DNA of 57,740 bases, taken from the NCBI GenBank assembly GCA_009885285.1, contig VFKX01000060.1, positions 1 through 57,740 of the forward strand, given 5' to 3'. The position numbers were made by a program, and so were the translations under genes. The stretch comes from Candidatus Falkowbacteria bacterium (GTDB lineage Bacteria; Patescibacteriota; Patescibacteriia; Patescibacteriales; UBA12465). A model generated the notes under the pieces. It was given only the letters and a program-made list of their open reading frames with translations, made no database searches and was not told where the DNA came from. Of the stretch, positions 40,718 through 57,505 are shown in pieces. Every line of letters starts with the position of its first letter. Positions within the stretch are counted from its first letter, which is position 1.

Positions 40718-40745
40718 TTGACATAATCAGGGTATTTGCTAGAAT
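40718..40745 (+). promoter_or_regulatory. Sigma70 promoter TTGACA-N16-TAGAAT upstream of tRNA-Asn
   Basis: -35 at 40718-40723 and -10 at 40740-40745, about 50 nt before the tRNA 5' end. Confidence 0.55.
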
Positions 40746-40832
40746 ATAGACATAAAATGTTTTTAAAGCATTTTTGTTTTTTGAAGACAATTTAATATTC
40801 CCGGGTAGCGCAGCGGTAGCGCAGTTGGCTGT

Positions 40833-41379
40833 GAACTCTTTCTTATCATTTGCTATAATGTACTTATGACAAAAGATAAGAGAAAATATGCCGATCGTGC
40901 TGAGTATTTAAAGAAAGCAGTTGACCGAAGGAGGAAACAAATTCGACAACAAGCGCTTGAGTACAAAGGCAATCGATGTGCAATTTGCGGTTATAATAAA
41001 TGTTTAAAAGCACTGGAATTTCATCATCTTGAATCCGATAAAAAGGATTTTGGTATCTCTGAAAAGGGTTATACCAGAAGCTGGGTGGCGACAAAGAAGG
41101 AGCTTGATAAATGTATATTGTTATGTGCAAACTGTCATCGTGAAGTGCACGAAGGTTCTACGCAGCTTCCTCAGGTAACTGAGGTCGAAAAACGAGGTGA
41201 ATTGCTGGAAGCCTAAATCCGCAAGGATATGGTAATCAGCAGCCAAGGCCTGAAGTTCAGGCAAGGTTCAGAGACTATCCCGAAAGGGAGTACTTCTCTA
41301 TTCAGAGCAGGAAGCGCCTCGCATCCGTTTTGACGGATGATGATATAGTCCACCCCATTAGGAAACTTTTGGATAAGTG
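40833..41379 (+). mobile_element. Group I intron (547 nt) in the anticodon loop, carrying an HNH ORF
   Basis: The 5' exon ends in U and the intron ends in G. Core strings AAGGATATGGTAATCAGCAGCCAAGGCCTGAAG, GGTTCAGAGACTATC and GATATAGTCC match the conserved Tetrahymena/Azoarcus-type P4-P7 and P7-P9.0 sequences as I recall them. Confidence 0.8.
40866..41216 (+). CDS. HNH homing endonuclease (intron-encoded)
   Basis: CAICGYNKCLKALEFHHLE...LLCANCHREVHEG (HNH with a CxxC pair). Lies wholly inside the intron. Confidence 0.85.
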   Translation: MTKDKRKYADRAEYLKKAVDRRRKQIRQQALEYKGNRCAICGYNKCLKALEFHHLESDKKDFGISEKGYTRSWVATKKELDKCILLCANCHREVHEGSTQLPQVTEVEKRGELLEA

Positions 41380-41427
41380 TAACCAATTGGTCGTCGGTTC
41401 GAATCCGACCCCGGGAGCATAGAAAAG

Positions 41428-41450
41428 ACGAGAGTAAAATCTCGTTTTTT
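41428..41450 (+). terminator. Rho-independent terminator after the tRNA
   Basis: ACGAGA/TCTCGT stem, loop GTAAAA, then T6. Confidence 0.65.
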
Positions 41451-41528
41451 CTTTGGAATAATAGCTATTGCCAATAAAAAATCCCCAGCTTCTAAAACTA
41501 GGGACTACTAAATTCACATTTATGAGTG

Positions 41529-56113: not shown

Positions 56114-57505
56114 CTAGAATTCAGCATTCTTCGGCGTACGCGGGAACGGGATGACATCGCGGATATTAGCCATGCCGGACAAGTACATTATCGCGCGCTC
56201 AAAACCGAGACCGAAGCCGGCGTGCTTAACGGAGCCGAAGCGGCGTAAATCGAGATACCAGCCATAGTCCTTAATATCGAGGCCAAGCTCCTTCATCCGG
56301 GCAACCAGGTTGTCATAACGCTCCTCTCTTTGACTGCCGCCAATAATCTCACCGATTCCCGGAACCAATAGATCCATGGCCGCTACCGTTTTATTATCCT
56401 CATTCAAGCGCATATAAAAGGCTTTGATTTCTTTCGGATAATCAATGACGAAGACCGGCTTCTGATAAACTTTGTCAGTCAGATAACGCTCGTGTTCTGT
56501 CTGCAGATCAATTCCCCATTTCACCGGATAAGTAAACTTTTCTCCTGACTTCTCTAAAATTTCAATAGCCTCGGTATAGGTAATTCGGCCGAAATCAGAG
56601 CCCACGATATTCTGCAAGCGCTCCATTAAAGTAGGGTCAATAAATTTATTAAAAAATTCCATCTCCTCCGGCAATTCTTTCAACACATAGGTAATCAAGT
56701 ATTTCAACATTCTTTCAGCTAAGGCCATGTCATCCTGAATGTCAGCAAAAGCCATTTCCGGCTCCATCATCCAGAATTCTGAAGCATGACGAGTTGTATT
56801 AGAGTTCTCTGCCCGGAAGGTCGGCCCAAAAGTATAAACCTTGTTTAACCCCATCACTAAAGCTTCGGCATTCAATTGTCCGCTAACAGTTAGTCCGGCT
56901 TTCTTGCCGAAAAAATCTTCACTGTAATCAATTTCACCTTTATCGTTCTTAGCCGGATTTTTCAAATCAAGAGTTGTCACTTGAAACATCTCGCCAGCTC
57001 CCTCAGCATCGCTCGTAGAAATAATCGGGGTATGGATATAATTAAAACCTTCTTCCTGGAAGAATTTATGAATCGCATAGCTCAAAGTTGAGCGCAGACG
57101 AAAAACAGCCGAGAAGGTATTGCTGCGGCCGCGCAGATGAGCAATCTCGCGTAAGAATTCAAAACTATGTTTCTTCTTCTGCAGGGGAAAGTCTTCCGGG
57201 GCGCGATTGATGATGGTAATATTTTTAGCCTTCAACTCGAAAGCTTGGCCGGCTGCCGGAGATTCGATAAGCTCGCCCTCGATTTCTAAAGATGAACCGA
57301 CGCTGATATTTTCTACTTCAGAAAAATTCGGCAAAGCGCTGTCAAAAACAATCTGCAAGCTCTTGAAAAATGATCCGTCATTTAATTCAATGAAACCGAA
57401 TTCCTTAGAAGATCGGGCGGTCCGCACCCAGCCGGCGACAGTCATCGTTTTATTCAAATGAGCGGCCGTGTCTTTATATAATGATTTAATGAGAGTGTAG
57501 GACAT
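56114..57505 (-). CDS. asnS: Asparaginyl-tRNA synthetase
   Basis: [21 protein letters not shown] and [12 protein letters not shown] motifs. 463 aa. Confidence 0.9.

Follow-up and report, generated by a model that had tools for sequence, protein, structure and literature searches.

Group I introns in the anticodon loops of bacterial tRNAs are known for Leu, fMet, Ile, and Arg, and a 1994 report by Biniszkiewicz is said to be the one for the cyanobacterial tRNA-fMet intron (I-Ssp6803I). The IC3 introns of tRNA-Leu(UAA) in cyanobacteria and plastids, tRNA-Ile(CAU) in Azoarcus, and tRNA-Arg(CCU) in Agrobacterium lack an open reading frame (ORF). According to a passage in one review, the tRNA-fMet intron of Synechocystis PCC 6803 encodes an endonuclease (Bonocora and Shub, 2001, cited in PMC3984707). 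It has been remarked that some tRNAs of the candidate phyla radiation (CPR) contain group I introns (PMC8172020), and the paper on tRNAscan-SE 2.0 mentions fMet and Ile2 only (PMC8450103). The locus described here lies in a contig of 57,740 nucleotides (nt) from a Candidatus Falkowbacteria bacterium (VFKX01000060.1), the whole of which is referred to as the window. Judged from its sequence and from those of its relatives, the locus is very probably a functional tRNA-Asn(GUU) gene with a mobile, self-splicing group I intron that encodes an HNH homing endonuclease in the loop of helix P1 (Table 1).

Phages provide the other described systems that are closest to this locus. Group I introns with HNH nicking endonucleases are represented there by I-HmuI (SPO1), I-BasI (Bastille), I-TwoI (Twort), and I-PfoP3I (PMC3428280, PMC11878797), and all phage introns known at the time of a 2014 review were in protein-coding genes (PMC3984707). 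T4 SegB is a free-standing homing endonuclease in a tRNA gene cluster (PMC2330249), and cyanophage F-CphI lies beside an ORF-less psbA intron, an arrangement associated with "collaborative homing" (PMC6083498, PMC2790892). A literature search gave no report of a tRNA-Asn gene with a group I intron, of a tRNA intron that encodes an HNH enzyme, or of a phage tRNA gene interrupted by a group I intron, with incomplete coverage that makes an earlier description possible.

The window intron resembles the I-Ssp6803I tRNA-fMet intron in its sporadic distribution and in having an ORF for a homing endonuclease that would act on the anticodon region of the uninterrupted gene; it differs in its host tRNA (Asn instead of fMet), in its enzyme (HNH instead of PD-(D/E)XK), and in its range, which covers hundreds of species in many phyla rather than a few cyanobacteria. 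With the ORF-less IC3 introns it shares the anticodon-loop location, a short P1 formed from anticodon-loop bases, and an anticodon stem available to hold the exons, and the ORF-less viral tRNA-Asn introns discussed below (183–243 nt) are about the size of the IC3 introns. The tRNA and the exact insertion point (35/36) are different, however, and the window intron has an ORF in the P1 loop as well as extra hairpins between P7 and P3′. An earlier note on this DNA had described the best-known bacterial tRNA group I introns as generally ORF-less, a generalization that is qualified by the Synechocystis tRNA-fMet intron as an ORF-carrying precedent (in the passage of PMC3984707 cited above).

Table 1. 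Features of the split tRNA-Asn locus and its surroundings, with positions in the window.
Feature	Position	Strand	Remarks
Putative sigma-70-type promoter of tRNA gene	40718–40745	+	TTGACA, 16-nt spacer, TAGAAT, TG before −10 box
tRNA-Asn(GUU) 5′ exon	40799–40832	+	34 nt; tRNA positions 1–35, ending ...C32 U33 G34 U35
Group I intron	40833–41379	+	547 nt, between anticodon nucleotides U35 and U36; RF00028, covariation, terminal G
Extended −10 TGcTATAAT	40851–40859	+	6 nt before HNH start codon; candidate internal promoter
HNH endonuclease ORF	40866–41216	+	116 amino acids (aa); in P1 loop; PHROG match, motif, homologues
Internal guide sequence (3′ strand of P1)	41161–41166	+	GCAGC 41162–41166 invariant in 79 sequences
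P2 hairpin, GUAA tetraloop	41169–41184	+	6/6 pairs change on both sides; 97.5% of cells paired
Catalytic core	41193–41350	+	RF00028 match and covariation
P3	41193–41199/41315–41321	+	Covaries
P4	41203–41208/41236–41241	+	Covaries
P5 and P5a with GCAA loop	41211–41233	+	
P6 and P6a	41242–41267	+	P6 covaries
P7	41273–41277/41346–41350	+	Invariant
Two small extra hairpins between P7 and P3′	41278–41314	+	Variable; missing in some relatives
P8	41322–41339	+	Covaries
P9.0	41352–41353 with 41377–41378	+	100% of cells paired, double changes
P9 hairpin, GAAA loop	41355–41372	+	92% of cells paired
Terminal intron G	41379	+	G in 79/79 relatives
tRNA-Asn 3′ exon	41380–41417	+	38 nt; tRNA positions 36–73 (U36 A37 A38 ... 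discriminator G73); CCA not encoded
Terminator-like hairpin ACGAGA-GTAAAA-TCTCGT and T run	41428–41452	+	Read from sequence; likely terminator
asnS (asparaginyl-tRNA synthetase)	56114–57505	−	NF003037 688 bits, TIGR00457 633 bits; context, outside the element

When the two exons are joined, they form a 73-nt molecule that ARAGORN calls tRNA-Asn(GTT), with a regular cloverleaf containing one G·U pair, the anticodon G34 U35 U36 in a spliced loop CU-GUU-AA, a U1-A72 pair, and discriminator G73. In bacteria, the anticodon G34 U35 U36 and the discriminator G73 are identity elements of tRNA-Asn; U1-A72 and G73 suit Asn, and Thr has G1-C72 and A73. The intron is bounded by a U on its 5′ side and both begins and ends with G. 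The coordinates, exon lengths, and intron length given in the earlier note, and the U before and G at the end of the intron that it reported, are all correct on re-reading of the sequence, and the cloverleaf and the anticodon that it derived from the joined halves agree with the ARAGORN call. Scans of the intact window with ARAGORN in default mode and with the Rfam tRNA model found no tRNA; default finders miss the gene, which is thus detectable only once the exons are joined or long introns are allowed. With its intron option, ARAGORN gives tRNA-Thr(tgt) i(33,547) for the window and Thr, Tyr, Ser, or Phe for the relatives, wrong anticodons that arise because the option presumes a different intron position.

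Homologues of the encoded HNH protein make up 3717 protein clusters (E 1e-3 or better), with Patescibacteria as the source of many, and a scan of one genome per species gave at least 516 loci encoding a relative. The same split tRNA-Asn architecture surrounds the ORF at 79 of the best 80 of these species-representative loci, which are the 79 relatives referred to below. By record name, the Patescibacteria among the hosts include Falkowbacteria, Magasanikbacteria, Parcubacteria, Uhrbacteria, Nealsonbacteria, Peregrinibacteria, and Saccharibacteria, and the other hosts include Pyrinomonadaceae, Blastocatellia, Nitrospira, Elusimicrobia, Omnitrophota, Aerophobetes, Acetothermia, and more; some third-party assemblies carry labels that seem untrustworthy, "uncultured Gammaproteobacteria" among them. 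The closest intron-bearing loci are in Falkowbacteria and Patescibacteria genomes. All 72 evaluable exon pairs of the relatives, once joined, are called tRNA-Asn(GTT), and the exon stems of the 79 relatives differ between phyla by compensatory changes. The element belongs to a very large, apparently undescribed family that extends across many bacterial phyla. An HNH-bearing intron in tRNA-Asn had been regarded as unusual in the earlier note, and it is so against the literature but not in the sequence databases, given the clusters and loci counted above.

RF00028 is the sole Rfam family reported for the intact window. It matches positions 41147–41372 over the full length of the model (positions 1–253) with a score of 82 bits (gathering cut-off 50; E 2.4e-19), and 17 of 20 diverse relatives pass the same cut-off. 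The assignment to group I, which in the earlier note had been drawn from the letters, is thus confirmed by the covariance model, and the core strings and GCAA-capped helix (41217–41228) quoted there are present. Covariation was assessed with 34 diverse ribozyme sequences (alignment A2), in which helices P2–P9 and P9.0 were named from the window sequence and their pairs counted. The named structure has 90.8% of cells forming standard pairs, compared to 30–45% when the partners are slid by 1–3 columns; 41 of its 55 pairs are changed on both sides (19–23 with slid partners), and its covariation score is 0.519 (0.05–0.11 with slid partners). None of 500 shuffles matched the observed pairing values. 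Among the helices, P3, P4, P6, and P8 covary; P7 is invariant and therefore uninformative on pairing, neither for nor against. P5a and P7.2 have no reliable score because the MAFFT alignment is uncertain there, and the inner two P6a pairs fail on A2 for the same reason. By core-profile alignment, the strings in P4, P6, and P7 are similar to those of the IC3 tRNA intron of Azoarcus, a resemblance that is a lead only. The extra hairpins between P7 and P3′ occur in the window and in most CPR relatives and are missing in L064, L067, and L069. Hairpins at this position (P7.1/P7.2) are more typical of subgroup IA, and a compact P2–P9 core with tetraloop contacts is characteristic of IC3.

The splice sites are fixed by P1 at one end of the intron and by P9.0 at the other. 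In P1, the guide sequence pairs with the end of the 5′ exon (G41162 with U35 at 40832, C41163 with G34, A41164 with U33, G41165 with C32, and C41166 with G31), and C41161 pairs with the first intron base, G40833. The wobble of U40832 with G41162 at the end of the exon is the conserved P1 U·G pair. The pair between the first intron base and the base 5′ of the guide covaries in the 79 sequences (GC in 44, AU in 27, GU in 3, CG in 1, unpaired in 4); the exon side of P1 has no room to covary, as the anticodon loop does not vary. A search for a guide close to the 5′ end of the intron found none, the sole conserved candidate being 3′ of the ORF. That guide, GCAGC, lies about 330 nt 3′ of the 5′ splice site, and since it is beyond the ORF and pairs with exon bases G31–U35, the ORF sits in the P1 loop. 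At the other end, G directly precedes TAAC in each of the 79 relatives, and the last base of an alternative register varies. This invariant G, the position of P9.0 directly before G41379, and the placement of U35 opposite the guide G together set the splice between U35 and U36 of tRNA-Asn. The earlier note, which had suggested folding to place the splice site, had overlooked a second register that is weighed below. A pairing of window GGUU (41154–41157) with AACC as P10 was also considered as a feature of the family and dropped, as it is seen in the window but is not kept in the relatives.

The 116-aa HNH ORF that the earlier note placed inside the intron is real. It matches the PHROG HNH families phrog_2255 (E 2.8e-28) and phrog_3106 (E 5e-23) and contains a CxxC...HH...CxxCH motif, in which the predicted catalytic histidines are flanked by two CxxC pairs of putative zinc ligands; a search of NCBIfam with the protein gave no match, and a sequence search of the PDB gave weak McrA and maturase HNH matches only. 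Eight residues (C38, C41, H53, H54, C87, C90, H91, and H95) do not vary across 19 diverse homologues, and N89 hardly does. Of the 79 intron ORFs, all at least 101 aa long, 77 have the motif, and an N-terminal helix (residues 5–32) is highly basic and strongly conserved. The ORF, like the exons, is thus under selection. The last ~55 nt of the ORF overlap the 3′ strand of P1 (the guide), P2, and the 5′ strands of P3, P4, and P5, and the stop codon is 3′ of the guide in 77 of 79 introns. The C-terminal 22 residues (95–116) have a predicted local distance difference test score (pLDDT) below 50 and are predicted to be disordered; as the end of the ORF also encodes ribozyme strands, this tail fits a sequence dictated by the RNA rather than by the needs of the protein. 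In one relative from Acidobacteriota (L066), the HNH frame is seemingly broken by a stop and the ORF restarts 95 nt into the intron; this may be a decaying copy. Taken together, the RF00028 match, helix covariation, P1 U·G pair, terminal G, intact ORF, and functional-looking exons bear out the earlier claim of a tRNA-Asn(GUU) gene split by an ORF-containing group I intron.

Intron-less alleles, for which a survey had been proposed in the earlier note, were found, and alleles with identical exons are common. The uninterrupted 29-nt tRNA-Asn junction occurs in at least 120 metagenome contigs. Among the 112 complete intron-less tRNA-Asn genes there, 46 match the joined exons of the window at 72 of 72 nt; no HNH gene or intron core was found at the intron-less tRNA-Asn loci. 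One of the intron-less loci (L321) is syntenic with the window, with the same NUDIX gene upstream (65% identity), a 160-nt spacer, the promoter and leader, and an intact tRNA-Asn. The occurrence of identical exons with and without the intron, including at a syntenic locus, identifies the intron as a present/absent insertion.

Relatives of the HNH protein also occur in viruses. In a set of 80 viral loci (L081–L160; IMG/VR contigs), the homologues have 50–65% identity and are mostly free-standing ORFs within tRNA arrays. At 58 of the 80 loci their closest neighbour (within 600 bp) is an intact tRNA-Asn(GTT) gene, although tRNA-Asn accounts for just 75 of the 725 tRNAs present. Bacillus phage Bastille (RefSeq NC_018856.1, 5857–6685) has the order tRNA-Asn, HNH endonuclease, tRNA-Asn. 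This association of the HNH family with tRNA-Asn in phages lends indirect support to target specificity. The arrangement of the window, with the HNH ORF embedded in the intron, is found in one viral contig (L081). A pattern scan found ~28 viral contigs in which tRNA-Asn genes within tRNA arrays are likewise interrupted between U35 and U36, here by an ORF-less intron of 183–243 nt. In these introns P1 is a compact hairpin and the guide is again GCAGC; they are related to the core of the window intron (nhmmer E down to 4e-35), and 3 of 12 viral loci checked pass the Rfam cut-off (L166 with 96 bits, L270 with 79 bits, and L256 with 59.5 bits). ORF-less introns are present at L165, L166, L175, L191, L192, L200, L213, L227, L233, L238, L250–L252, L258, L261, L269, L270, and others. 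At L087 (520–1149; same contig as L200), an HNH homologue (520–878) ends within the 5′ exon of a tRNA-Asn gene; the intron of this gene (906–1111) is 206 nt long, lacks an ORF, and has the compact P1 hairpin GCUGU|CCAGUUG|GCAGC. At L203 (3496–4168, minus strand), the HNH ORF is replaced in a 598-nt tRNA-Asn intron by a 184-aa PD-(D/E)XK ORF (PF11645, 70.9 bits), the enzyme family of the tRNA-fMet intron endonuclease.

Two side observations concern these viral contigs. In L261, a GOLLD RNA (312–770; RF02032, 155 bits) lies ~140 nt 5′ of the intron-containing tRNA-Asn gene (910–1226). ARAGORN runs with long introns also give further split tRNAs in phage arrays, called as Leu(taa) with 689 nt (L256, 1300–2073), Ser(tga) with 224 nt (L184, 3427–3740), and "His" and "SeC" with ~197 nt (L194, 4176–4448; L211, 7586–7866). 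Matches to the intron-core profile coincide with the split calls in L184, L194, and L211, and in L256 the match is in a neighbouring "Tyr" call (2402–2670) and not in the Leu call. These genes may be misread tRNA-Asn genes or may contain group I introns in other phage tRNAs.

The window element is like the phage HNH introns in having an HNH enzyme inside a group I intron, with mobility presumed to follow a nick or cut. The phage introns, in contrast, are in protein-coding genes such as DNA polymerase and encode larger enzymes with DNA-binding domains of the NUMOD or I-HmuI type, whereas the window enzyme has 116 aa, a predicted basic N-terminal helix and zinc-bound HNH core, and membership in other PHROG families (phrog_2255). 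Free-standing viral HNH genes in tRNA arrays beside tRNA-Asn recall SegB and F-CphI, and the HNH gene of L087, abutting a tRNA-Asn gene with an ORF-less intron, recalls F-CphI in particular, an arrangement that has been proposed as a precursor of mobile introns. SegB and F-CphI, however, have other targets and belong to other enzyme classes (GIY-YIG and Endo VII type, respectively), and in the present family the free-standing, abutting, and embedded stages are all found for one enzyme family and one target gene, as known here from sequence. It is tentatively suggested, with considerable doubt, that the HNH lineage is specialized on tRNA-Asn(GUU) and that its three states (free-standing in phages, abutting an ORF-less intron in L087, and lodged within the P1 loop in many bacterial phyla) might form a natural series in the assembly of a mobile intron from a ribozyme and a nuclease with a shared target.

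The functional status of the interrupted gene and the position of its splice sites each admit a different reading. If the locus were a decaying relic, composed of a tRNA pseudogene and a dead intron, another tRNA-Asn gene elsewhere would decode asparagine, and the tRNA scan, which covers the 57.7-kb window alone and found no second tRNA in it with ARAGORN, leaves room for such a gene. Decay would be hard to reconcile with exons identical to those of 46 uninterrupted genes, with helices and an HNH ORF that are all intact, with a cloverleaf held by compensatory changes and a ribozyme that covaries across 79 species-level genomes, and with a promoter and terminator that are intact by sequence. 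Circularized CPR genomes, moreover, needed intron-containing tRNAs for a complete amino-acid set (PMC8172020), and a relic is very improbable. Splicing in the second register (CU | GUGAAC...AUAAG | UGUAACC) would instead yield tRNA-Thr(UGU); in the window this register also has a U before the intron and a G at its end, and it is the one chosen by the ARAGORN intron option in the window and in many relatives. Its would-be terminal G is nevertheless T, C, or A in many loci (e.g., L039, L047, L048), the conserved P1 pairs U33 with A where the wobble needs G, and P9.0 covaries immediately before G41379. The U1-A72 pair and G73 suit Asn and not Thr, and a product decoding threonine is scarcely credible. 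A functional tRNA-Asn gene spliced at U35|U36 is thus the reading carried forward.

Several observations count against the view that this gene contains a self-splicing intron spread by its HNH protein. P1 has just 4–5 exon pairs, which are unable to covary, and base 31 is mismatched in 13 of 79 relatives; no conserved P10 was found among the relatives compared. The protein falls marginally under the cut-off of Pfam HNH PF01844 (20.0 bits against 21.4), its AlphaFold model is mediocre (mean pLDDT 67), and a Foldseek search of the PDB with this model gave nothing significant that would point to the beta-beta-alpha-metal fold of HNH (His-Me finger) enzymes, the best hit being T4 endonuclease VII (E 0.37). 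Distances between intron cores also correlate with distances between exons (Spearman 0.62), which indicates that vertical descent within lineages is important as well, and much of the distribution could reflect vertical inheritance with occasional precise loss rather than homing. The same correlation favours a reading in which the intron splices and the HNH protein no longer drives homing, being kept as a maturase-like factor or general nuclease while inheritance is essentially vertical; the basic, conserved N-terminal helix could bind RNA as well as DNA, and the ORF is physically entangled with the ribozyme. Such a role would not account for the presence/absence polymorphism with identical exons, the syntenic locus included, or for the same intron in distant phyla and phage contigs; free-standing relatives adjoin tRNA-Asn genes that have no intron to assist, and ORF-less versions of the intron imply that the core has no obvious need of a protein, all of which makes a loss of homing unlikely. 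The intron may additionally shield the host tRNA-Asn gene from phage nucleases, and it has to be asked whether protection is the reason for its retention, with the split recognition site rendering the host immune to related phage HNH nucleases. Phages do carry free-standing members of the HNH family beside their own tRNA-Asn genes, some of which hold an ORF-less copy of the intron. The step in which phage enzymes cut host tRNA-Asn genes is purely inferential, however, and immunity of intron-plus alleles would be an automatic by-product of homing for which separate selection is unneeded, so that retention for protection is an improbable explanation. A mobile intron that splices itself and is spread by its own HNH endonuclease is accordingly preferred to both.

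Signals for expression of both the tRNA and the endonuclease can be read in the window. The putative tRNA promoter matches the consensus at 11 of 12 positions, ends 54 nt 5′ of the tRNA, and is strong by sequence; it is also kept, together with the leader, at the intron-less syntenic locus. The hairpin 3′ of the tRNA gene is the likely terminator of the transcription unit, and the terminator prediction tool lists it for the minus strand only. Within the intron, an extended −10 element located 4–10 nt 5′ of the HNH start is present in 23 of 49 G-start (CPR-type) introns, in 1 of 30 others, and at 0.02% of control positions, an indication that the HNH mRNA of the CPR lineage may be leaderless. 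A Shine-Dalgarno-like motif 5′ of the ORF is found in 8 of 30 non-CPR introns only. Loci with an equivalent extended −10 element include L003–L005, L007–L009, L014, L017, L018, L020, L024, L026, L029, L035, L038, L051, L070, L073, and others. In a Candidatus Aerophobetes genome (L047, 1–2735), the split tRNA-Asn gene is directly 3′ of 23S and 5S rRNA genes and, by this position, is probably within the rRNA operon transcript. The asnS gene, which according to the earlier note lies in the same window, is indeed found there (Table 1).

These features are compatible with a pathway in which the split gene would be transcribed from its own promoter and the intron would fold so that exon bases G31–U35 pair with the guide across the ORF, a pairing for which conservation and covariation provide evidence. 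The U35·G41162 wobble would mark the 5′ splice site, which an external guanosine would attack as in other introns of the group I family, and P9.0 and the terminal G41379 would position the 3′ splice site. The exons are probably held by the anticodon stem of the tRNA and not by a conserved P10, as judged from the analogous pre-tRNA-Leu intron of Anabaena; exon ligation would restore the anticodon loop. The HNH protein could be made from a leaderless mRNA initiated at the internal extended −10 element, or from the precursor or the excised intron, and would then cut or nick intron-less tRNA-Asn genes near the insertion site, after which repair off the intron-bearing copy would spread the intron.

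Because standard tRNA finders miss the split gene, intron-bearing genomes will appear to be without tRNA-Asn, which affects estimates of completeness and translation capacity for hundreds of genomes of Patescibacteria, Acidobacteriota, Nitrospira, Elusimicrobia, and other groups. If the split gene is the sole tRNA-Asn gene, these small genomes rely on a ribozyme to decode every asparagine codon. With this family, tRNA-Asn is added to the tRNAs known to carry group I introns and phage tRNA genes, apparently, to the genes that harbour them; one intron is also linked to two enzyme families, with PD-(D/E)XK taking the place of HNH in one phage contig. At 116 aa and with a defined target of 72 nt, the enzyme would be very small for a site-specific nuclease, and the family, with its free-standing, abutting, and embedded arrangements, provides a compact, testable case of the joining of a homing endonuclease and a ribozyme.

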